UHGV virus genome: UHGV-0106768
Direction: 5' to 3' (one strand)
Length of the DNA: 44,108 nucleotides
Source of the DNA: a virus
The position numbers were made by a program, and so were the translations under genes. Positions 22,321-38,132 of this stretch are shown here, one piece after another. The stretch's first letter is position 1; each line of letters opens with the position of its first letter. A model generated the notes under the pieces. The model saw only the letters and a program-made list of their open reading frames with translations. It searched no databases and was not told the origin of the DNA.

Positions 22321-23592
22321 ATGAAAACAGCAGAACTTCGCATGATCCCTGTCTCGGAACTGAAGCCTGCGGAATACAACCCGCGTAAAAAGCTGAAGCC
22401 CGGCGACAAGGAATACGAGAAGATCAAAAACAGCATCGAGGAATTCGGTTTTGCCGACCCTTTGGTAGTCAACGCCGATATGACCATCATCGGCGGACAT
22501 CAGAGACTGACCGTAGCGATGGCGCTCGGCTACACGGAAGTTCCGTGTGCGGTGGTAGACATCGACAAGGTTCGTGAGAAGGCACTGAACATCGCACTGA
22601 ACAAGATCACGGGTGCGTGGGACGAGAACCTTCTTGCTGAACTTCTGGAGGATATTCAGAACAGTGATTTCGATCTTGGCAAGACCGGCTTTGACCCGCC
22701 GGAGATCGAGCAGCTTTTCAATCAGGTACACGATAAGCAGGTCAAAGAGGACAGCTTCGATGTGGAGGAGGAGCTTCAGAAACCGACCTTCTCTCAGCCG
22801 GGAGATACCTGGATCCTCGGCAGGCACAGAGTCATCTGCGGCGACAGCACAGTTGCGGAGACATACACAAAGCTGATGGACGGACAGAAAGCAAATCTCG
22901 TCCTGACGGACCCGCCTTACAATGTGGATGTTGAGGAGACCGCCGGCAAGATCATGAACGATAACATGAGCGACAGCGATTTCTACAACTTCCTGCTTGC
23001 CGCCTATAAGTGTATGTATGACAGTCTTGCCGATGACGGCAGCATCTATGTATGGCACGCCGACACCGAGGGGCTGAATTTCAGAAAGGCATTCAAGGAC
23101 GCAGGATTCCAGCTTTCCGGCTGCTGTATCTGGAAGAAGAATTCGCTGGTGCTCGGGCGCAGTCCTTACCAGTGGATCCATGAACCGTGCCTGTTCGGCT
23201 GGAAGCAGAAGGGCAAGCATCAGTGGTACGCCGACCGCAAGCAGACGACCGTCTGGGAATACGACAAGCCGAAAAGCAGTCCCGATCATCCGACCACAAA
23301 GCCCATCCCGCTGATGGCGTACCCGATCAAGAACAGCACCATGACAAACGGCATCGTCCTCGATCCATTTCTCGGCTCTGGCTCTACGCTGATCGCCTGC
23401 TGTGAGACAGACCGTGTCTGCCGGGGCATCGAGCTTGACCCGAAGTTCGTGGATGTCATCGTGAAACGTTACCTCGCATGGTGTCAGGAGAAGCAGACCG
23501 CAGAGGTCGCATATGTTCTCCGTGACGGCCAGAAGCTGTCATACGAGGAAGCGATTGCAGTAATGCCGCAGGACGGTGATGCTGTTGAGTGA
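22321..23592 (+). CDS. ParB-like N-terminal domain fused to N6-adenine/N4-cytosine DNA methyltransferase
   Basis: ParB-N-like GGHQRL; MTase motif IV DPPY before motif I LDPFLGSGST (beta-class order); GGGAGGGA RBS. Confidence 0.8.
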   Translation: MKTAELRMIPVSELKPAEYNPRKKLKPGDKEYEKIKNSIEEFGFADPLVVNADMTIIGGHQRLTVAMALGYTEVPCAVVDIDKVREKALNIALNKITGAWDENLLAELLEDIQNSDFDLGKTGFDPPEIEQLFNQVHDKQVKEDSFDVEEELQKPTFSQPGDTWILGRHRVICGDSTVAETYTKLMDGQKANLVLTDPPYNVDVEETAGKIMNDNMSDSDFYNFLLAAYKCMYDSLADDGSIYVWHADTEGLNFRKAFKDAGFQLSGCCIWKKNSLVLGRSPYQWIHEPCLFGWKQKGKHQWYADRKQTTVWEYDKPKSSPDHPTTKPIPLMAYPIKNSTMTNGIVLDPFLGSGSTLIACCETDRVCRGIELDPKFVDVIVKRYLAWCQEKQTAEVAYVLRDGQKLSYEEAIAVMPQDGDAVE

Positions 23593-24352
23593 AGTAAAAT
23601 GCGTTCTCATACACGACAATTTCCAGAATTACAAGGGCTACAGCATTCCGAGGGCACAGCTCGTCATTGCGGATATCCCGTATAACATTGGCGGAGATTT
23701 TTACGCAAGTCGCCCGGACTGGTATGTGAATGGCGACAATCAGAACGGCGAAAGCAGCAAAGCGCACAAGGCGGCATTCCACACGGACTACTCTTTCAAC
23801 ATCGCTGAGTATTTCGCATTCTGCAACCGACTGCTCAAAAAGGAACCGTCCAAAGGTGAAAAGGATGCTCCCTGCATGATCATGTTCTGCGCCTTCCAGC
23901 AGATCCCGGAGGTCATCCGGCAGGCGGAGAAATAAGGCTTCAAGCACTACCAGTTTTTATGCTTTATGAAGAACTACAGTCCGCAGGTGCTGAAAGCAAA
24001 CATGAGGATCGTTGGTGCTACCGAATATGCGCTGGTGCTGTATCGGGGCAAGCTGCCGAAGTTCCGCAATACCGATGCGGACGGCAAGCGGCACATGATC
24101 TTCGACCATTTCGACTGGGTGCGGGACGGCAAAGATATCCCGAAGATACATCCAAGCCAGAAGCCGGTGAATCTGCTGAAGCGCCTGATTGGGATATTTA
24201 CCGATGAGGGCGATGTGGTCATCGACCCCTGTGCGGGTTCAGGAAGTACACTGAGAGCCGCAAGAGAAATGGGACGCAACAGCTACGGCTTTGAGGTCAG
24301 CAGGGATTTCTATACCAAAGCCCGTGAGCAGATGCTCGGAGGTGCGGAATGA
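23579..24352 (+). CDS. N6/N4 DNA methyltransferase interrupted by in-frame TAA at 23933-23935
   Basis: Motif IV DIPY upstream of the stop; HPSQKP and motif I IDPCAGSGST downstream; same frame, continuous protein-like read-through (AEK * GFKHYQFLCFMKN). Confidence 0.65.
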
Positions 24353-24594
24353 CGAAACAGGAATGTGCCATCGTGACAGCGTACACAGGGTTCGCTATGC
24401 TGAAGGGCAGCGACCTGAAATATCTGTACAATTATCTCTCCGGTCTCATCGGCAGGCCGGTGTATTCACACGAGATCCCTGCGGTCGCAGAAGCCTGCAA
24501 GGAACAAATACGAGAAGATTTCCTTGCCCTGTGCAGGAACGCAAAGGAGGCGGATGATGGATCATACAACAATGACGCTCGGCAGTCTGTTTGA
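24349..24594 (+). CDS. hypothetical small protein
   Basis: 81-aa ORF overlapping both MTase genes. Confidence 0.4.
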   Translation: MTKQECAIVTAYTGFAMLKGSDLKYLYNYLSGLIGRPVYSHEIPAVAEACKEQIREDFLALCRNAKEADDGSYNNDARQSV

Positions 24595-26848
24595 CGGCTC
24601 CGGGGGCTTTCCGCTTGGTGGCATCCTCGCAGGGATCGAGCCAAGGTGGAGCAGCGAAATTGAACCTTTTCCGGTGCTTGTCACGCACAAGCGGCTGCCG
24701 CAGGTGCAGCACTACGGTGATGTATCTACGCTGAACGGCGCAGAGCTTCCGCCGGTGGATATCATCACCTTAGGCAGTCCTTGTCAGGACCTGTCTATTG
24801 CGGGCAAGCGTGCCGGAATCCATGACGGTGATCGGTCGAACCTGTTCTTTCAGGCGATCCGCATCATCAAAGAAATGAGGGATGCAACAAATGGACGATA
24901 TCCGCGATACTGCGTCTGGGAAAATGTCCCCGGCGCTTTCTCATCCAACGGAGGAAACGACTTCAAGGCTGTCCTCGAAGCAGTTATCGGAGTTAAAGAA
25001 AAAGGGATCGAGGTGCCTGCGCCTGAAAATCACAGATGGGCAAAATCAGACGTATATCTGGGAGACGGATGGAGCGTGGCTTACCGAGTTTTCGATGCTC
25101 AATACTGGGGTGTCCCCCAACGCAGAGCAAGAATCTACCTTGTCGCAGATTTTGCTGGCGAAAGTGCCGGAGAAATACTATTTAAGTCCGAAGGCGTGTC
25201 TTGGTATACTCCGCAGGGCTTCCGTGCGTGGCAAGGAGCTGCCGGAGGTGCTGAAGAAGGCACTGGAGAAACAGGCGGGCGGTCTGACGCTGGAGGTGGA
25301 ACCCTCTGCCTGAATACACAGGGCAACAGCGGCGTCGGCATCACCGAGGACAAGGCTCTCGCACTGGTCGCACAGGATCACGGGAATCATCCTGCCGTTC
25401 TTGCCGCAGGTTTTTCCACAGAGCATAGTGCAAAAGCACGCAGCATCGGATACGAGGAGGAAGTCTCCCCGACACTGAGAGCAGGTGTTGTTCCTGCGGC
25501 ACTCTCGGTCGAAAACCATCCGACAGACGGTCGTGTGAAGATCCGTGAGGACGACACCTGCCAGACACTTTGCAGCAGAGCCGGGACGGGCGGCAACAAT
25601 GTACCGCTTGTCGCTGAACCGATCACGCTGAAAATCAGGTCAGGCTGCGAAGGCGGCGGCAAGGGCGCTCTCTGGCAAACTGATAAATCTGCTACGCTTG
25701 CTACCAACAACAACCAGACACTCTTTCAGCCAGAGATCAAAGCCTTCGGTGTATGTAGCAAGCATTCCAATGCGATGATGTCAGACAATCCGCACAGTGG
25801 CTTTTACGAAGCGACCACGAGCAGAACGCTTGACCAGAGCGGTGGAAACTCCGTAACATCGAATCAGGGCGGCATCTGCGTGGTAGCACCTGCGCCGGAG
25901 ACATTCGATGTGCGTTTCACATCGGACGGCACGAAAAATGCTCGTGGGCATTGTTACCCGACAGACATTTCCCGATGCCTTGATACGAGCGAGGGATCGC
26001 CAGACTCGAATCACGGCGGTGTCGCTGTGGTGGCTCTTGAACCGGGGGCTGCATCACGTGTCGGCGGTCATGTGTACAGTGACGGCAAAAGCGGTACGCT
26101 TCGAGCCAATGCCGGCGATAATCAGCAGGCTGTTGTGGTCGCCGAGCCGGAGACCTATGCTCTGCAAGGCTCGATGATCGGTCGTGCCGACAAGAACGGT
26201 CCGCAGGGTGACGGCATCAATGAGGATGTGTGCTTTACGCTCAATACTTCAGACAGGCACGCTATTGCCGCACCCGATCCGTCTTTCACGATTTCCCGTG
26301 ACAATCACTTCGCCGTTTCGGAAGATATATCTGTTACGGCAGTTGCGAGAGGTCCTGCAACGGTCGCAGCCCCGGCAGATCACTACTGCACAAGCAAGAA
26401 TTCACACCACACGGTCGCTGTGCATGAGCAGGCAAACACGCTGGTCGCATCCGACTGGAAGGATCCGCCGCTTGTGAACGACCTTCCGAATGACGAGCCG
26501 GTATATATCGTAAGAAGGCTGACTCCGGTGGAGTGCGCCAGATTGCAGGGATTCCCGGACTGGTGGTGTGCCGACCTTGCGATTCCTGATCCTTCTGACG
26601 AGGAGATCGCCTTCTGGATGGAAGTATGGGAAACTTGGAGACAGATCACAAATCCCAAGGGCAAACCGAAAACGGAAAAGCAGATCCGCAAATGGCTGGC
26701 TAATCCGTACACGGACAGTGCCGAGTACAAGTTATGGGGCAACGGTGTCTCAGAGCCCGTTGTGTTCTTCGTGCTATCCGGCATTGCCTGGGCGGCACAG
26801 AATTCTGAAACTAATGCAGCAAATTGTGAACATTCTGATACTATGTAA
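24557..26848 (+). CDS. DNA (cytosine-5) methyltransferase, unusually long, probably multispecific
   Basis: Motif I LFDGSGG, motif IV GSPCQDLS, motif VI ENVPG, C-terminal motif IX/X RRLTPVECARLQGFPDWW; ~450-aa variable region between catalytic and C-terminal motifs. Confidence 0.85.
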   Translation: MDHTTMTLGSLFDGSGGFPLGGILAGIEPRWSSEIEPFPVLVTHKRLPQVQHYGDVSTLNGAELPPVDIITLGSPCQDLSIAGKRAGIHDGDRSNLFFQAIRIIKEMRDATNGRYPRYCVWENVPGAFSSNGGNDFKAVLEAVIGVKEKGIEVPAPENHRWAKSDVYLGDGWSVAYRVFDAQYWGVPQRRARIYLVADFAGESAGEILFKSEGVSWYTPQGFRAWQGAAGGAEEGTGETGGRSDAGGGTLCLNTQGNSGVGITEDKALALVAQDHGNHPAVLAAGFSTEHSAKARSIGYEEEVSPTLRAGVVPAALSVENHPTDGRVKIREDDTCQTLCSRAGTGGNNVPLVAEPITLKIRSGCEGGGKGALWQTDKSATLATNNNQTLFQPEIKAFGVCSKHSNAMMSDNPHSGFYEATTSRTLDQSGGNSVTSNQGGICVVAPAPETFDVRFTSDGTKNARGHCYPTDISRCLDTSEGSPDSNHGGVAVVALEPGAASRVGGHVYSDGKSGTLRANAGDNQQAVVVAEPETYALQGSMIGRADKNGPQGDGINEDVCFTLNTSDRHAIAAPDPSFTISRDNHFAVSEDISVTAVARGPATVAAPADHYCTSKNSHHTVAVHEQANTLVASDWKDPPLVNDLPNDEPVYIVRRLTPVECARLQGFPDWWCADLAIPDPSDEEIAFWMEVWETWRQITNPKGKPKTEKQIRKWLANPYTDSAEYKLWGNGVSEPVVFFVLSGIAWAAQNSETNAANCEHSDTM

Positions 26849-26925
26849 GCTGTTCTGTATGGGCTTTCCGTGATATGCACAATCTCAGGGGCGTAAAAGC
26901 CCCGTACACTCTACGATTTACAGTC

Positions 26926-26954
26926 TTGATATATCCGCCGTAATGGCGTAATAT
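26926..26954 (+). promoter_or_regulatory. sigma-70-type promoter P1 (TTGATA-17-TAATAT)
   Basis: Consensus-like hexamers with 17-bp spacer ~55 nt upstream of ATG 27011. Confidence 0.6.
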
Positions 26955-27010
26955 GTGACTACCGCAAGGGAAAACCGAGCGGAATCAAAAACGAAACGGA
27001 GGATTCACAT

Positions 27011-28132
27011 ATGAAAACTTATGCAATGATCATTGGAAACCGCAAGGAACTCACAAAGAGAATCGAGGCACTCACCGGAGAGCGCAGCGTATACACCTTC
27101 ATGCCGAGATGCGCCTATGAGATCGGGGCATTCGCAGTCGAGAAGGACGGCACACTTACGGCACAGGACGATGCCGACCAGAGCGTGATCGACACCCTGA
27201 GAGCCGAGGGTATGATCGGTGGTGAGATCATCGCAGAGAGCATCAAGGCAGTCGAGCCGGAGCAGACCGATGAGACCGCAGAGCCGGAACAGCCTGCACC
27301 GCCCGTAAGCACCGATGAATGGGACGATGATGAGGATGACGACGATGAGAACAGCGTCGAGGGCGAGAATGCGGAAGCGGAAGAGCCGGAGGAGTCCGAA
27401 GAAAATGCCGATAAGTCGGAGCCTTCCGCAGAGCCAGAAGCCGCACCTCCTGCGACCGAGGATGCCTGGGATGATGAACCGGAGGATGAACCCGGCGACG
27501 AGCCGGAAGAAACCACCGAGCTTCCTGAACCGCTGACCGCAGAGATCAGCTTCCCGCTGAGCCATCACACGGTGCAGAGCCTTACAAACCTCATCTGCAT
27601 GATCCACTCCCGCGGCGCACTTCTCAGCAAGGCAACCGGCGGACAGTTTTACGCTGACAAGAGCCTCGCCGATGCGATCCTCGATGACAAGACCTTCCGC
27701 AGCATTCACGAGCTGATCGCCTACATCAGAGAATGGGAGGAGACGAATCCTGAACTGAAGGGCATCCGCTTCGCCGATGACAAGCTAATCTTTGACGGCT
27801 TCGGTGCAGCGCAGGATGCCGAAACGGTGCAGACCTTCACCAAGCTCGCCACAGCCATGAACAGGATGGCGATCACGCAGAAACGTGTGCAGGCAAAGGA
27901 TGTCGATGACAGCAACGAAAAGTACGCACTCCGCATCTGGCTGATCCGCCTTGGGCTGAACGGCGCAGACTGCAAGGTTGACCGCAAGCGCCTCATGGCT
28001 CCGCTTTCCGGACACACCGCATTCCGCAACGATGCGGAGCGTGTGCGCTGGGAGGCAAAGCAAAAGGCAAAGCGTGATGCTGCCAGAACCGAACTGACCG
28101 AGGAGGATGAAAACGATGCAGTTTCCGAATGA
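27011..28132 (+). CDS. acidic protein with amidoligase-like C-terminal module
   Basis: 373 aa; long D/E-rich tract (DEWDDDEDDDDENSVEGENAEAEEPEESEEN...); C-terminal ~70 aa align with the C-terminus of the 28562 amidoligase. Confidence 0.6.
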   Translation: MKTYAMIIGNRKELTKRIEALTGERSVYTFMPRCAYEIGAFAVEKDGTLTAQDDADQSVIDTLRAEGMIGGEIIAESIKAVEPEQTDETAEPEQPAPPVSTDEWDDDEDDDDENSVEGENAEAEEPEESEENADKSEPSAEPEAAPPATEDAWDDEPEDEPGDEPEETTELPEPLTAEISFPLSHHTVQSLTNLICMIHSRGALLSKATGGQFYADKSLADAILDDKTFRSIHELIAYIREWEETNPELKGIRFADDKLIFDGFGAAQDAETVQTFTKLATAMNRMAITQKRVQAKDVDDSNEKYALRIWLIRLGLNGADCKVDRKRLMAPLSGHTAFRNDAERVRWEAKQKAKRDAARTELTEEDENDAVSE

Positions 28133-28364
28133 AAGACAGCTCAGAGCCTTGCGGGAGCGTTATCCCGCAGGAACCCGCATCCGACTGAAGCATATGGATG
28201 ACCCTTATGCACCCGTACCGCCCGGCACGGTCGGAGAGGTTCAGATGGTCGATGACGGCGGCAACATACACATGGTCTGGGAGAATGGCAGAACGCTCTC
28301 CCTTATAGACGGTGTCGATGATTTCCAAGTCATTTCTGACCGCAATGGGGGCTCCGGAAAATAA
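28116..28364 (+). CDS. DUF4314-like small protein
   Basis: MQFPNERQLRALRERYPAGTRIRLKHMDDPYAPVPPGTVGEV...; GAGGAGGA RBS 9 nt upstream of ATG 28116. Confidence 0.5.
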   Translation: MQFPNERQLRALRERYPAGTRIRLKHMDDPYAPVPPGTVGEVQMVDDGGNIHMVWENGRTLSLIDGVDDFQVISDRNGGSGK

Positions 28365-28477
28365 GAGATCCTATTCCATTGTATCCGAGTATACCATAGA
28401 ATTTCAAGTATATCAAGTGTACACATACACCAGATATGAGCAATGTATTTTCCTCGATATTCTGTGGTTTTAGCGGC

Positions 28478-28506
28478 TTGCTATATCCTCCGAAAGACGG
28501 TAACAT
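28478..28506 (+). promoter_or_regulatory. promoter P2 (TTGCTA-17-TAACAT)
   Basis: Same architecture as P1; followed by conserved leader with GGGC-AAAC-GCCC hairpin. Confidence 0.6.
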
Positions 28507-28561
28507 GTGACACAACGGAAGGGCAAACGCCCACCGAAAAACCGAATCGGAGGATACCAAA

Positions 28562-29506
28562 ATGACTGAGAAAACCGCACAGCAGATCAACAGAATGAAG
28601 GAGCAGACCATCGGGGTTGAGATCGAGATGAACAACATCACCCGCAAGGCTGCCGCAAAGCTCGCCGCCAACTTCTTCGGCACCAGCCGCACCGAGTACA
28701 CCGCACACCGCAACGGCTACGAAACCTACAGCGCATGGGATGCACAGGGCAGAGAGTGGAAATTCCAGAAGGACGTCAGCATCGCAGGCCCCGACAGCGA
28801 AAAGTGCGAACTGGTCACACCGATCCTGCACTACGCAGACATCGAAACCCTGCAGGAGCTTGTGAGAAGGCTCAGAAAGGCAGGAGCGCGCAGTGATTAC
28901 ACGCGGGGATGTGGAGTCCACTGCCACATTGGAGCCCAGGGACACACACCGCAGACCTTGAGAAACCTCGCAAACCTGATGGCAAGCCACGAAACCCTGA
29001 TCGCCGAGGCAATCAGAGTAGACCAGAGCAGAATGCGCCGCTACTGCAGAACAGTTGACCCGAGATTCCTTGAACAGCTCAACCGCAAAAAGCCCACCAC
29101 GATGGCACAGCTTGCGGACATCTGGTACGGCGCACAGGGCTGCGAATACGGCAGAACCCACCACTACAACGACAGCCGCTATCACATGCTCAACCTCCAC
29201 GCTACCTTCACCAAAGGCACGGTCGAGTTCAGACTTTTCCAGTTCGCACCGCCTTCCAACGGCAAGCAGAACGGGCTCCACGCAGGCAAGCTCAAGAGCT
29301 ACATTCAGCTCTGCCTCGCAATGAGCCAGATGGCAAAGGACCTGCGGAGCGCCAGCCCCAAGGAACAGCAGAAGGAAAACAAAAAGTTCGCCATGCGGAC
29401 TTGGCTGATGAGAATGGGATTCATCGGGGACGAATTCGCAACCGCAAGGGAAACCCTCACCGAGAACCTTACAGGCGACAACAGCTTCCGCTTCGGCAGA
29501 CCTTAA
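28562..29506 (+). CDS. Amidoligase_2-family enzyme (glutamine-synthetase-like amidoligase)
   Basis: N-terminal IGVEIEMN motif characteristic of the family; 314 aa. Confidence 0.65.
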   Translation: MTEKTAQQINRMKEQTIGVEIEMNNITRKAAAKLAANFFGTSRTEYTAHRNGYETYSAWDAQGREWKFQKDVSIAGPDSEKCELVTPILHYADIETLQELVRRLRKAGARSDYTRGCGVHCHIGAQGHTPQTLRNLANLMASHETLIAEAIRVDQSRMRRYCRTVDPRFLEQLNRKKPTTMAQLADIWYGAQGCEYGRTHHYNDSRYHMLNLHATFTKGTVEFRLFQFAPPSNGKQNGLHAGKLKSYIQLCLAMSQMAKDLRSASPKEQQKENKKFAMRTWLMRMGFIGDEFATARETLTENLTGDNSFRFGRP

Positions 29507-29777: not shown

Positions 29778-30239
29778 ATGAACAAGAAAAAATACTACAT
29801 AGCCTACGGCAGCAACCTCAACATCCGCCAGATGCGGTTCCGCTGCCCAGGCGCAAAGCCCATCGGCATTTCCGCGATTCCTGACTACGAACTGCTCTTC
29901 AAGAGCAGCAAGACGGGAGCGTACCTCACCATCGAGCCGAAGGACGGCGGGCTTGTTCCGGTCGCCGTGTGGGAAGTGACAGCCGACGATGAGAAGCACC
30001 TCGACATCTACGAGGGCTACCCGAACTTCTACTACAAAAAAGAAGTACGCCTGCCGATCAAGCTGGCAAACGGCAAGACCAAAAAGGTCACGGCATTTGT
30101 CTACATCATGCACGAGGAGCGTGAGATTGCGATCCCGTCAATGACCTACATCCGCACCTGCGAGGAAGGCTACCGCAACTTCGGATTTGATGTGAAGTAC
30201 CTTGACAGGGCATACATGAGAAGCACAAAGGAGGACTGA
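29778..30239 (+). CDS. gamma-glutamyl cyclotransferase-like (AIG2/GGCT family) protein
   Basis: N-terminal YIAYGSNLN motif and EGYP motif. Confidence 0.65.
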   Translation: MNKKKYYIAYGSNLNIRQMRFRCPGAKPIGISAIPDYELLFKSSKTGAYLTIEPKDGGLVPVAVWEVTADDEKHLDIYEGYPNFYYKKEVRLPIKLANGKTKKVTAFVYIMHEEREIAIPSMTYIRTCEEGYRNFGFDVKYLDRAYMRSTKED

Positions 30240-30241
30240 AA

Positions 30242-30445
30242 ATGAAAGAACAGGTTTTTGAGAAGCGTACATGTCCGCAATGCGGACGCACCTACACCGA
30301 GCGTCCTGCCCTATCCCGCTACGACAACGACACGATCATCTGCCCGGACTGCGGCACGAGGGAGGCACTCGAAAGCATGGGCATCAGCATCGAGGAACAG
30401 GACAAGATCCTCGGCATCATCCACGAGAAGTACAACGGCGAATAA
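30242..30445 (+). CDS. small zinc-ribbon protein
   Basis: CPQCG...CPDCG; starts 3 nt after the GGCT stop (same operon). Confidence 0.55.
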   Translation: MKEQVFEKRTCPQCGRTYTERPALSRYDNDTIICPDCGTREALESMGISIEEQDKILGIIHEKYNGE

Positions 30446-30475: not shown

Positions 30476-30517
30476 CCGCATTCTCAGGGATAACTTTATC
30501 CCCCACTTTCCGGGCGT

Positions 30518-30553
30518 GACACGGCGCGTTCTGGCGCAAACTGTGGGCTTGTG
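30518..30553. repeat. cassette boundary repeat, partial copy (i)
   Basis: Core GACACGGCGCGTTCTGGCGC...TGTGGGCTTG shared with copies at 32212, 33081, 34408. Confidence 0.5.
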
Positions 30554-30617
30554 TATATGTACCTGTTCAGCTTGCTGAAAACGGCGATTCTTCTACGATT
30601 TATTTTGCATATAGGCG

Positions 30618-32147: not shown

Positions 32148-32211
32148 TAGGTTCAGCCCTGCGGTGCTGACTTGCCCCACGTTGTCCTTTGTGCGGTTTT
32201 CCTGCGATAAG

Positions 32212-32269
32212 CTTGCCCCTGCGGAAAGCCGCCTCACACGGCGCGTTTGTGTGCCTCCTGTGGGCTTGG
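32212..32269. repeat. cassette boundary repeat, copy (ii)
   Basis: CTTGCCCCTGCGGAAAGCCGCCTCACACGGCGCGTTTGTGTGCCTCCTGTGGGCTTGG. Confidence 0.55.
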
Positions 32270-33023: not shown

Positions 33024-33080
33024 CGACGACACACGCACCACGTTGCCTCGTGTGGGGCGGTGCCGGGGAGATGCGTACAG

Positions 33081-33124
33081 CTTGCCCCTGCGAAAAGCCG
33101 CCTTACACGGCGCGTTCTGGCGCG
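33081..33124. repeat. cassette boundary repeat, copy (iii)
   Basis: CTTGCCCCTGCGAAAAGCCGCCTTACACGGCGCGTTCTGGCGCG. Confidence 0.55.
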
Positions 33125-33193
33125 TCCTATACGATGTACAATTCCGCCCGACTTCCCGCCTCATGTTTGTCACATTTATTTTGCAGACAGACG

Positions 33194-34321: not shown

Positions 34322-34407
34322 TCGGCAAAACGGAGCAGTCCTTCTGCGGAGGGGCTGTTCCACGCCACGTTCGCTTGTGTGGGGGGCTTACGGCTTTCTG
34401 CGGATAT

Positions 34408-34464
34408 CTTGCCCCGCGATAAAAGCCGCCCACACGGCGCATTTGTGTGCCTCCTGCGGCAAGG
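34408..34464. repeat. cassette boundary repeat, copy (iv)
   Basis: CTTGCCCCGCGATAAAAGCCGCCCACACGGCGCATTTGTGTGCCTCCTGCGGCAAGG; flanked by CTTGCC/GGCAAG inverted ends. Confidence 0.55.
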
Positions 34465-34992: not shown

Positions 34993-35466
34993 ATGGCTCA
35001 GAGAGGCAGAAAACCAACGCCTACGGCGATCAAAGAGCTGGAAGGCAATCCGGGCAAGCGTCCGCTGAATGATGCAGAGCCGAAGCCGGAACGCAAGGCA
35101 CCGCCCTGTCCGAAGTGGCTGGAGCCCGAAGCAAAAAAGGAATGGCGCAGGCTGTCAAAGCAACTGGAGCAGATTGGTGTGCTGACCGAGGTCGATCAGG
35201 CGGCATTCGCATCCTACTGTCAGGCATACGCACGATGGAAAGAAGCCGAGGAATTCATGACCCAGCACGGCACGATCGTAAAAACAAAATCAGGTTACTG
35301 GCAGCAGGTTCCGCAGGTATCCATTGCGCAAACTTATCTGAAGATCATGAACAAGATCGCAGAGCAGTTTGGCCTGACCCCGGCGGCAAGAAGCCGTATC
35401 ACTGCCGGCGCAGATATGAAAAACGCTGCCGTTGACGATATGGATGAACTTCTCGGAGGTGGCTGA
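34993..35466 (+). CDS. terminase small subunit (P27 family)
   Basis: GRKPTPTAIKELEGNPGKRPLN...AFASYCQAYARWKEAEEF...FGLTPAARSRI pattern; GGAAGGAG RBS; in-frame ATG also at 34987. Confidence 0.75.
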   Translation: MAQRGRKPTPTAIKELEGNPGKRPLNDAEPKPERKAPPCPKWLEPEAKKEWRRLSKQLEQIGVLTEVDQAAFASYCQAYARWKEAEEFMTQHGTIVKTKSGYWQQVPQVSIAQTYLKIMNKIAEQFGLTPAARSRITAGADMKNAAVDDMDELLGGG

Positions 35467-38132
35467 TGGCGAGAACGGCAAAGGCAAGAGAAAGACCTGC
35501 CAACTATCCGAAACTGAAGGATTATAAACCGACACGCTTTATGCTGCCGGAATCGCACTACGATGCGGCAAAGGCTGACCGAGCTGTGCGGTTCATCGAG
35601 AATCTCTGCCATACCAAAGGACGCTGGGCAGGCAAACCGTTCTGGCTGCTTCCGTGGCAGGAACAGATCATCCGGGATATTTTCGGCATCGTCAAAGAGG
35701 ACGATATGCGGCAATTTCGTACCGCCTATGTCGAAATTCCAAAGAAAAATGGGAAGCAGCTTGCACTGGATACACCGATCCCGACTCCGCAGGGATTCAC
35801 CAATATGGGAGATCTGAAGGTCGGAGATACAGTATTCGATGAAAACGGCATTCCGTGCCATGTGGTTGCGAAAAGTCCTGTGGATGATACAGAGCAAGCC
35901 TACAAGCTGACCTTCAAGGACGGCACCTCGATCATTGCCGGGGAAAGGCATCTGTGGAACTGTCAGTATATTTACGGCAAACGCAAGGATGTTCTCTGGA
36001 CGACCGGCGAGATCTATCGCAGGACAACGGAATACAGACAGCGTTTTTCCGACAGACCACAGACAAAGCGGGATTCCCTTATCCGAATTCCGGTGTGCGG
36101 TGTCCTTCAGACAGAAGCGGCAGTTTTACCGATTGATCCGTATCTGTACGGCTACTGGCTCGGAAACGGTAATGTGACCATGCCGGAGATCACTGTTCGG
36201 ACGGAGGATGTCGAGGATATCATCTCGAATATTCCGTATAAGGTACACAACCGTTATCCGCAGAAATGCGGCGGCAGTGAGATCATAAAGTACAATGAAC
36301 TGAAAGCAGTACTACTTGACAGCTTCCGTGAAAAGAAGATCCGACCAGAATATCTGAGGGCATCCGCAGAGCAGAGATGGGCATTACTGCAAGGGCTTAT
36401 GGATTCGGACGGCTGTATCGGTGAACGCAAAGGGCAAAGTGTGTATGTCACAACGCTGCGAGAGCTGGCGCTTTCCGTCAGAGAACTGCTGTGGTCACTC
36501 GGCATCAAAAATGCAGTGAAATGTGAGCCTTCTACACGGCATGGGTGGCCGACCGGCGAGATTTTGTATATCGTCCGTTTTACAACCTTTGATGACCAAC
36601 CGACATCAAGGCTTAAACGCAAAAATACACGCACACAGGCGCGGTTAAAGGAAACTCGCTCCTGTTTTCATTATCTGCTGGATATTCAACCTGTAAATCA
36701 TCCTGTAAAAATGCAGTGCATTCAGGTGGACAGTCCGAGTCACCAATATCTCGCAGGACCGTCATTTGTGCCTACGCACAACAGTGAGCTTGCAGCGGCA
36801 ATTGCACTGTATCTGCTCTACGCCGACAACGAGCCGTCTGCTGAGGTCTACGGCGCTGCTGCTGATCGTGGGCAGGCATCCATTGTATTCGATGTCGCCA
36901 AAAGAATGGTTGAGATGACACCGGCACTTCTGAAACGCTCAAAAATCATGGCGGCGACAAAGCGTCTGGTGAATTACAGTAATGTTGGCTTTTATCAGGT
37001 GCTTTCAGCGGAAGTCGGTACAAAGCACGGATTGAATGTATCCGGTCTGGTTTTGGATGAACTTCATGCCCAACCGAACCGCAGCCTTGTGGATGTTCTC
37101 ACAAAGGGTTCCGGTGATGCCCGTACTCAGCCGCTGTACTTCCTGATCACAACCGCCGGAACGGATCGCAACAGCATCTGCTACGAGTATCACACGAAAG
37201 CAAAAGATATTCTGGACGGCAGGCGCATTGATCCGTCCTTCTATCCTGTGATCTACGGCTTGAACGATGATGACGACTGGAACGCAGAGGAGTCATGGTA
37301 TAAGGCAAATCCCTCGCTCGGATACACTATCGCCATCGACCGAGTCCGCGATGCTCACCGGGAAGCCCTTACAAATCCCGCTGAAGAAAATGTATTCCGT
37401 CAGCTGAGGCTTGACCAGTGGGTAGGCAGTGCGGTGGCATGGATTCCGGAGCATATCTACGACAGGGGCAATCTTCCGATCGACCTCGAAAAGCTCCGGG
37501 GACGGGAGTGCTACGCAGGTCTTGACCTATCCAGCACATCGGATATCACGGCATTTGTGCTGGTGTTCCCTCCGCTGCATGACGGCGAGAAATACATCGT
37601 TGTCCCGCACTTCTGGCTGCCGAGAGAAACGCTCGATTTACGAGTACGGCGAGACCATGTTCCCTACGATGTATGGGAGCGCATGGGATTATTTCATATC
37701 ACCGAGGGCAATGTGGTCGATTACAATTTCGTGCGGAAAACGATCAACGAGCTGCACACGATGTACAACATCAAGGAAATTGCTGCCGACCGCTGGAATG
37801 CCACACAGCTTATCACAGACCTTGAGGGAGACGGATTTACCGTTGTTCCGATGGGCATGGGCTTCAAGGATATGTCCCCGCCGATGAAGGAACTGTACAA
37901 GCTCATACTCGAAGGGCAGTTTATCCACGGCGGCAACCCTGTACTCCGCTGGATGGCAGGAAATGTGGTCGCTGAAATTGATGCAGCGGAGAACATCAAA
38001 CCAAGTAAAAAGAAAAGTACAGAAAAGATTGACGGTATCGTGGCATGGATCATGGCACTTGACCGCTGCATCCGCCACGAAATGCAGGGCAGTGTCTATG
38101 ACGAACCCGGCCACGATCTTGTGGTCATCTGA
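35466..38132 (+). CDS. terminase large subunit, intein-containing
   Basis: Walker A KKNGK split from SELAAAIALYLLYAD by an insertion; downstream Walker B-like LVLDELHAQ, ITTAGTD, nuclease-domain motifs. Confidence 0.85.
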   Translation: MARTAKARERPANYPKLKDYKPTRFMLPESHYDAAKADRAVRFIENLCHTKGRWAGKPFWLLPWQEQIIRDIFGIVKEDDMRQFRTAYVEIPKKNGKQLALDTPIPTPQGFTNMGDLKVGDTVFDENGIPCHVVAKSPVDDTEQAYKLTFKDGTSIIAGERHLWNCQYIYGKRKDVLWTTGEIYRRTTEYRQRFSDRPQTKRDSLIRIPVCGVLQTEAAVLPIDPYLYGYWLGNGNVTMPEITVRTEDVEDIISNIPYKVHNRYPQKCGGSEIIKYNELKAVLLDSFREKKIRPEYLRASAEQRWALLQGLMDSDGCIGERKGQSVYVTTLRELALSVRELLWSLGIKNAVKCEPSTRHGWPTGEILYIVRFTTFDDQPTSRLKRKNTRTQARLKETRSCFHYLLDIQPVNHPVKMQCIQVDSPSHQYLAGPSFVPTHNSELAAAIALYLLYADNEPSAEVYGAAADRGQASIVFDVAKRMVEMTPALLKRSKIMAATKRLVNYSNVGFYQVLSAEVGTKHGLNVSGLVLDELHAQPNRSLVDVLTKGSGDARTQPLYFLITTAGTDRNSICYEYHTKAKDILDGRRIDPSFYPVIYGLNDDDDWNAEESWYKANPSLGYTIAIDRVRDAHREALTNPAEENVFRQLRLDQWVGSAVAWIPEHIYDRGNLPIDLEKLRGRECYAGLDLSSTSDITAFVLVFPPLHDGEKYIVVPHFWLPRETLDLRVRRDHVPYDVWERMGLFHITEGNVVDYNFVRKTINELHTMYNIKEIAADRWNATQLITDLEGDGFTVVPMGMGFKDMSPPMKELYKLILEGQFIHGGNPVLRWMAGNVVAEIDAAENIKPSKKKSTEKIDGIVAWIMALDRCIRHEMQGSVYDEPGHDLVVI
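35757..36782 (+). mobile_element. class-3-like intein (342 aa) with LAGLIDADG homing-endonuclease domain inside terL
   Basis: Starts QLALDTPIPTPQGF (Gln, not Cys/Ser/Thr); block B HLW; block F Cys (MQCIQVD); ends FVPTHN followed by Ser; LAGLIDADG-like LYGYWLGNGN and LLQGLMDSDG; excision restores EIPKKNGK-SELAAAIALY. Confidence 0.7.

Follow-up and report, generated by a model that had tools for sequence, protein, structure and literature searches.

A phage protein with an acidic insert as a probable full-length, catalytically dead paralogue of the adjacent amidoligase

The virus genome UHGV-0106768, analysed here as a single stretch of 44,108 nucleotides (termed here the window), encodes two neighboring proteins: a strongly acidic protein of 373 residues (27011..28132, + strand; GGAGGA ribosome-binding site 7 nt before the ATG) and an amidoligase of the Amidoligase_2 family of 314 residues (28562..29506, + strand). 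An earlier note made from the sequence had proposed that the two share a C-terminal segment, and both open reading frames (ORFs) are present as that note described. Comparisons of the sequences and of their family profiles indicate that the acidic protein is very probably a full-length, catalytically dead paralogue of the adjacent amidoligase. It is termed here the pseudo-amidoligase because ten presumed catalytic residues are replaced or deleted throughout its family. The amidoligase itself looks active: all of the residues taken as catalytic are intact, and it matches the Pfam model PF12224 over residues 13-254 with E 9e-56 (190 bits versus a cut-off of 22).

The pairwise match is strongest near the C-termini, where an ungapped BLASTP alignment pairs residues 269-339 of the acidic protein with residues 240-310 of the amidoligase (E 6e-10; 31% of positions identical, 56% positive). 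The Smith-Waterman score of 107 compares with a mean of 34 (standard deviation 4.6, maximum 62) over 2000 shuffles, which corresponds to z = 16, and z is 20 when only the two local segments are shuffled. Likewise, a hidden Markov model (HMM) made from the close relatives of one protein retrieves the other, with E ~1e-16 both ways. The shared segment, whose significance the earlier note had left to a proper statistical model, is thus significant by BLASTP, by shuffling and by family HMMs. That the similarity is due to chance, or to the compositional bias of a Lys/Arg/Ala-rich tail, deserves practically no credence: testing left nothing in its favor, though the tail past residue 340 is of low complexity, and it is ruled out by a BLASTP score that is composition-adjusted, by segment shuffles that preserve composition, and by reciprocal HMM and hhalign comparisons with E-values from 1e-16 to 1e-29. 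(A second BLAST high-scoring segment pair, which placed acidic-protein residues 149-221 against amidoligase residues 55-135 with E 0.92, was discarded, its register being at odds with hhalign.)

The homology is not limited to this segment. The earlier note had described a module of about 70 residues starting at position 27920; the module is real, but this extent is too short, inasmuch as similarity runs along nearly the whole length of the two proteins, and 27920 lies within the module, which starts at 27815. Profiles of low diversity already align over 162 columns (E 3e-13). When a diverse amidoligase profile is used instead--65 sequences drawn from related loci, from Faecalibacterium phage Taranis, from Arthrobacter phage Salgado and from two other phages--hhalign aligns the two family profiles at full length, residues 3-343 of the acidic protein with residues 20-314 of the amidoligase, over 248 columns with E 4e-29. 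Profile alignment had been named in the earlier note as a check on its proposal, and this result carries the homology well beyond what was proposed there; the notion that similarity is confined to an add-on domain of 70 residues is ruled out by this extension from 162 to 248 columns. In the other direction, an HMM of 150 diverse members of the acidic-protein family matches residues 120-310 of the window's amidoligase with E 2.5e-27.

Most of this signal comes from the C-terminal domain of the pseudo-amidoligase (residues 175-340; 27533..28030, + strand), which is homologous to amidoligase residues 117-313 apart from two deletions; hhalign aligns residues 175-342 with 117-313 over 167 columns (E 5e-28, probability 99.8%). 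The N-terminal alpha/beta domain (residues 1-75; 27011..27235, + strand) corresponds to about residues 20-113 of the amidoligase but lacks both the E-x-E strand motif and the strand that bears E83. Aligned on its own against the 65-sequence profile, this domain (residues 4-72) matches amidoligase residues 21-113 colinearly, with E 2.7e-4 and probability 42%. (Another register, which paired residues 8-40 with 94-125 at E 0.024 and probability 2%, was dropped in favor of this colinear alignment, which comes from the more diverse profile.) The profile phrog_2443, annotated as 'amidoligase enzyme', likewise matches both proteins colinearly: the acidic protein with E 2.1e-34 (residues 10-355 on profile positions 166-431) and the amidoligase with E 1e-112 (profile positions 144-417). 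Probably, then, phrog_2443 already contains both families.

The second line of evidence concerns the active site. Ten residues are invariant or nearly so among the 65 amidoligases: E20 and E22 (the E-x-E on strand 1), E83 (the E of ELVTP), H120 and H122 (the H-x-H), R206, N211 and H213, and E222 and R224 (the E-F-R). At the same ten aligned positions, 151 members of the acidic-protein family either are variable (K/R/T/N, T/S/E, S/A/T, T/I/S/V or T/D/S) or have lost the segment altogether. Consistent with this, PF12224 matches neither the window's acidic protein, even at E 0.1, nor any of 47 diverse members of its family. The GVEIEM motif, which the earlier note had described as lacking in the acidic protein, is indeed absent from it. 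Among the readings offered in that note, a degenerate amidoligase paralogue (a pseudo-enzyme) is the one borne out, both by whole-fold homology and by the family-wide loss of all presumed catalytic positions.

Relative to Amidoligase_2, therefore, the pseudo-amidoligase shows both clear likenesses and clear differences. The two are homologous over their whole length and share the same order of elements, a GHTxxxLRNL helix, an F-x-x-F strand and a C-terminal Arg/Trp/Gly module; they fall into the same PHROG, occur in the same phage lineage and usually lie at the same locus. On the other hand, the pseudo-amidoligase lacks a PF12224 match, has lost the presumed metal, ATP and substrate positions along with about 65 residues of a helical subdomain and the E83 strand, and has gained an acidic, disordered insert. 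Phage amidoligases as such, a group of ligases resembling glutamine synthetase (GS) and the carboxylate-amine ligases of the GCS2 type, were reportedly first described by computational means by Iyer, Abhiman, Burroughs and Aravind (Mol Biosyst, 2009).

Predicted structures of both proteins, another check that the earlier note had named, are in part supportive. In the AlphaFold2 (AF2) model of the acidic protein the predicted local distance difference test (pLDDT) score is 81-89 for residues 1-75, about 90 for residues 175-340 and below 50 for residues 76-171. Secondary-structure elements follow each other in parallel order in the two AF2 models (strand, helix, several strands, helix, strand, helical region, strand pair, three C-terminal helices), and structure searches with the two models have 17 chains in common between their top-60 lists. 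For both models the best structural matches are the YbdK/GCS2 carboxylate-amine ligase (PDB 1tt4) and PafA/Dop (PDB 4bjr, 9cku), Dop of the Pup system being the closest fold match. The order of elements thus agrees, but within BFVD, where the top matches are mostly phage amidoligases, none reaches E 0.001. The fold evidence is accordingly consistent with, but modest support for, a predicted kinship to the GS/GCS-like ligases.

What the two families conserve best is the C-terminal module first noticed in the pairwise match. In the pseudo-amidoligase it spans residues 269-339 (27815..28027, + strand) and consists of a long helix, a QKRxQAK/NEKY loop, a two-helix hairpin and an SGHxAFR tail; in the amidoligase it spans residues 240-310 (29279..29491, + strand), where residues 255-314 lie past the end of the Pfam model. 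Nine module positions are near-invariant in the 151 acidic-family members--R308, W310, R313, G315, G318, R325, G334, F338 and R339--and their amidoligase counterparts are, in the same order, R279, W281, R284, G286, G289, R296, G305, F/W309 and R310. Outside the module, further positions kept in both families include (amidoligase/acidic protein) R28/R11, D71/D46, H128/H186, N135/N193 and F223/F261. The module is the best-conserved stretch of the pseudo-amidoligase family. It is a trait of the Firmicutes-phage subfamily of amidoligases, because the amidoligases of Arthrobacter phages match only up to about residue 260. The suggestion that the two proteins share merely a separable interaction or targeting domain finds no support, the segment being instead the most conserved part of a common fold.

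Several points nonetheless weigh against the interpretation of the acidic protein as a dead amidoligase. The N-domain homology is by itself marginally significant (at the 42% probability given above). With an overall predicted template modelling score (pTM) of 0.53, the model leaves the packing of the two domains into one GS-like fold presumptive. The catalytic set was chosen from invariance within the amidoligase alignment combined with general knowledge of GS/GCS-type ligases, rather than from a solved Amidoligase_2 structure; and the loss of canonical residues is, strictly speaking, still compatible with a different chemistry. Finally, any binding partner of the pseudo-amidoligase is hypothetical.

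Between the two halves of the fold lies the acidic tract (residues 76-174; 27236..27532, + strand). It is present as the earlier note stated, carries a net charge of -43 and is predicted to be disordered; it is inserted in the loop that joins the N-terminal sheet to what is, in the enzyme, the H-x-H-bearing strand. Across the 136 family members that have both domains, this linker ranges from 0 to 285 residues (median 57), with a median D+E fraction of 0.33, a median net charge of -16 and almost no K or R. The acidity of the tract recurs, yet the tract itself is dispensable, variable and, on prediction, disordered.

These properties bear on the other idea put forward in the earlier note, namely a DNA-mimic-like protein. 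In its strongest form, the acidic tract would mimic DNA or another polyanion and thereby block restriction or another DNA-binding defence, and the amidoligase-like parts would do no more than carry it. The charge of the window's tract, nearly free of K and R, and the acidity of the linker in almost all members that have one speak for this, as does the location of the gene directly after three DNA methyltransferase genes and a gene for S-adenosylmethionine (SAM) synthetase, which is an anti-restriction-like setting. Like Ocr and ArdA, moreover, the protein is strongly acidic, is encoded by phages or mobile elements and lies near anti-restriction methyltransferases. Ocr and ArdA, however, present a rigid, DNA-shaped acidic surface, whereas here the charge resides in a linker of variable length with pLDDT <50, and neither sequence-family nor fold searches found any similarity of the acidic protein to Ocr/ArdA-like mimics. 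A structured mimic of the Ocr/ArdA type is disfavored because the tract is predicted to be disordered and is 0-285 residues long. Mimicry in this form is improbable, although the acidic linker and the anti-restriction-like module stand in its favor.

Gene order offers a further view of what the pseudo-amidoligase may work with. Context was surveyed at 80 IMG/VR loci, of which 68 had enough sequence for the downstream count and 65 entered the count of the upstream methyltransferase. A gamma-glutamylamine cyclotransferase-like protein (GGACT), often as two paralogues, and a DUF4314 protein each occur at 61 of the 68 loci, an amidoligase occurs downstream at 58, and a homologue of the large C5 methyltransferase lies directly upstream (within 1.2 kb) at 58 of the 65. 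In the window this C5 cytosine DNA methyltransferase (24524..26848, + strand; PF00145 E 4e-37), the most constant neighbor, is immediately upstream; a methyltransferase is also directly upstream in phages of Streptococcus, Erysipelothrix, Gardnerella and C. innocuum. The GGACT/AIG2 gene of the window, the usual companion of the amidoligase, is at 29778..30239 (+ strand; PF06094 E 1e-12, phrog_2520 E 5e-53).

The frequency with which the amidoligase follows (58/68), the adjacency of the two paralogous genes, the position of the shared module as the top-conserved part of both proteins and the presence of the same promoter-like cassette before both genes would all suit an obligate non-catalytic subunit, one that uses the module to form a heterodimer with the active enzyme and that activates or targets the latter, as is the case with certain 'prozyme' paralogues. 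This arrangement is nevertheless unlikely. Complete genomes of Streptococcus phage Javan191, Erysipelothrix phage phi1605, Gardnerella phage AB1 and phage NatCom_9291 encode a family member of 217-232 residues but neither amidoligase nor GGACT, the gene having a DNA methyltransferase directly upstream and a small DUF4314-like ORF downstream; conversely, NatCom_28775 and NatCom_3870 have an amidoligase complete with the module but lack the dead paralogue. The constant partners are thus DUF4314 and the methyltransferase, not the amidoligase. Since either gene can be present, module included, where the other is missing, the module is unlikely to serve solely as a heterodimer interface; it is more likely a structural element of this amidoligase subfamily, or a site for a common ligand or target, than an obligate heterodimer interface.

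The link to DUF4314 is closer still. The DUF4314 gene of the window (28116..28364, + strand; PF14192 E 7e-29) has a probable ATG at 28116 and an alternative one at 28107, of which the former is most likely the start. From that start it overlaps the pseudo-amidoligase stop by 17 nt (28116-28132), with a GGAGG inside the tail of the upstream gene. The same 17-nt overlap recurs in four phages from widely differing hosts, which with the window makes five; the hosts of phages that conserve it include Acutalibacteraceae, C. innocuum, Erysipelothrix and Gardnerella. As judged from this sequence conservation, the overlap points to translational coupling of the pseudo-amidoligase with DUF4314.

The overlap also bears on whether the amidoligase could use the acidic protein as its substrate or as a tag, modifying the acidic tract or the C-terminal Glu in a Pup-like or polyglutamylation-like way that GGACT reverses. 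Such a role would be in keeping with the gamma-glutamyl amine substrates of GGACT-type enzymes, with Dop of the Pup system as the closest fold match and with the xAVSE ending of many family members. The recurrent xAVSE tail, however, is accounted for by the overlap, in which the same nucleotides also encode the start codon and N-terminus of DUF4314; this rules the tail out as a Pup-like motif, and it is found in only 12 of 150 diverse members; besides, the protein exists without the amidoligase and is, unlike Pup, a large folded protein. A substrate role is on this showing very unlikely.

What the pseudo-amidoligase does can at present be proposed only tentatively, with distinctly less assurance than its ancestry. 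While the residues taken as necessary for ATP-dependent carboxylate-amine ligation are gone, the protein retains the scaffold and most notably the C-terminal helical module rich in Arg, Trp and Gly, and it may have a non-catalytic role in binding or scaffolding and be produced in stoichiometric amounts relative to DUF4314. It may act within an accessory phage module of a host-takeover or anti-restriction-like kind, a placement suggested by the constancy with which DUF4314 and the methyltransferase block accompany it. Where an amidoligase co-occurs, the dead paralogue might present, hold or compete for a shared target. PafA and Dop provide a precedent within this fold for paralogues that act on one substrate in different roles. 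A more specific version is a long shot: the pseudo-amidoligase and DUF4314 would form a stand-alone counter-defence or host-takeover factor, the Arg/Trp-rich module of which binds the very host target (protein or nucleic acid) that the amidoligase modifies covalently, while the insert acts as a polyanion or DNA-like decoy or as an autoinhibitor of the basic module. If this were true, the two proteins would be 'bind' and 'bind-and-modify' versions of one anti-host weapon.

The family so defined is large. It comprises at least 906 clusters at 90% identity; at 50% identity there are at least 308 clusters with E<1e-30 and 3223 with E<1e-3. Searches of Pfam, NCBIfam, PADLOC and PDB sequences with the acidic protein and its family returned no match, and PADLOC likewise had no match for the pseudo-amidoligase, DUF4314, amidoligase or GGACT proteins. 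In public records the family members of the phages without amidoligase are labeled 'virulence-related protein', and entries so named from Streptococcus Javan, Erysipelothrix phi1605, Clostridium and Gardnerella prophages belong to the same pseudo-amidoligase family; the automatic labels 'virulence-related' and 'amidoligase enzyme' are both silent on inactivation, and no support for 'virulence' was found. When longer family members were searched for domain fusions, P0384 stood out, the others showing only weak GNAT or zinc-ribbon hints. P0384 is a chimera of 252 residues that joins an N-terminus of the Vsr mismatch-endonuclease type (PF03852, E 1.5e-19) to the pseudo-amidoligase C domain; it is probably a deletion or fusion artefact (a chimeric ORF), and it fits the Vsr and C5 methyltransferase genes that adjoin the pseudo-amidoligase in some elements.

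No publication describing the pseudo-amidoligase family was found in the literature, though traces of it are visible there. In Clostridium clostridioforme LM41 prophages, two phrog_2443 ORFs one gene apart (for example orfs 35/37 and 206/208) are listed without comment, and a GGCT gene lies two positions past the second phrog_2443 ORF (PMC11318856); this is the same arrangement as the pseudo-amidoligase/amidoligase/GGACT locus of the window. These genes go unmentioned in the paper on Heliusvirales (PMC11283538), and amidoligases near thymidine-hypermodification genes have been called uncharacterised (PMC8989533).

The window itself is the genome of a tailed phage, a gut Firmicutes phage akin to Ca. 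Heliusvirales, with genes for TerL, a portal, a ClpP-type protease and an HK97-type capsid protein, and also for a family A DNA polymerase, a D5-type primase-helicase, an SNF2 helicase, SAM synthetase and NrdD, in addition to the three DNA methyltransferases. IMG/VR holds contigs nearly identical to it, in which the acidic protein is 98% identical. Among annotated phages its nearest relatives are those of 'Ca. Heliusvirales' from the gut, with Oscillospiraceae, Ruminococcus and Lachnospiraceae as hosts, and a genome scan found prophage copies in many metagenome-assembled genomes from rumen and gut as well as in Ruminococcus flavefaciens.

The pseudo-amidoligase, amidoligase and GGACT genes are each preceded by a promoter-like leader cassette of one repeat family (D1), at 26916..26977 (+ strand) for the pseudo-amidoligase, with sister copies at 28468 (amidoligase) and 29700 (GGACT). 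The pattern TTGMTA-N17-TAAYATG has 4 matches versus 0.09 expected. About nine copies of some 60-110 nt each, all on the + strand (26916, 28468, 29700, 30599, 31275, 32310, 33175, 33724 and 34513), precede nearly every gene of the accessory region from the methyltransferases to the terminase; the leader has a hairpin-like core, GGGCAAACGCCC, and ends in GGAGGA-N7-ATG. This suggests individually transcribed, co-regulated genes, and the cassettes shared by the pseudo-amidoligase, amidoligase and GGACT fit units that are co-regulated yet separately exchangeable. A second intergenic repeat (GCTTGCCCCTGCG.AAAGCCGCC.CACACGGCGCGTT..., families D3/D10) occurs at 30514-30561, 32199-32263, 33068-33132 and 34395-34459, upstream of some of the promoter cassettes. 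An Rfam scan of the window gave 0 matches, and intrinsic terminators around the genes did not rise above the level in shuffled sequence.

Some further features of the region may be mentioned. Many relatives (loci L013-L015, L019-L036 and others) carry two GGACT paralogues beside the amidoligase, before or after it in varying order; the window has one. Directly after GGACT, at 30242-30445, is a zinc-ribbon protein of 67 residues with two CxxC pairs, whose position is conserved in many related loci and for which PADLOC gave only weak zinc-finger-type matches to Cas12 models. The C5 methyltransferase is 774 residues long and matches PF00145 in three stretches, its N- and C-terminal motifs apparently lying several hundred residues apart; a multispecific phage enzyme with several target-recognition domains is a possible reading. 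An ORF at 23966-24352 (128 residues) matches the N6_N4_Mtase profile at positions 121-219 only, which is the C-terminal half of that profile, and is preceded by an ORF of 119 residues at 23576-23935, so that 23576-24352 may be a split or frameshifted methyltransferase gene. Lastly, TerL (35466-38132; 888 residues) has a LAGLIDADG_3 match at residues 303-370, before the ATPase domain match, which suggests an intein or an inserted homing endonuclease; the TerL of phi1605 is annotated as 'intein-containing'.

Pseudo-enzyme paralogues are common, and in kind the finding is no great surprise. It concerns, however, a large family that lacks a Pfam model, that is mislabeled (as 'virulence-related protein', 'amidoligase enzyme' or 'hypothetical') and whose gene keeps one place in the genomes of relatives of Ca. 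Heliusvirales, a phage lineage among the most widespread in the human and ruminant gut. For annotation it means that two 'amidoligase' calls in one prophage need not correspond to two enzymes. For the phage amidoligases more generally, it singles out the C-terminal Arg/Trp/Gly module as the likeliest carrier of a non-catalytic function, such as target recognition, and the binding target of the dead copy would offer a tractable way into the biology of phage amidoligases and GGACT proteins.

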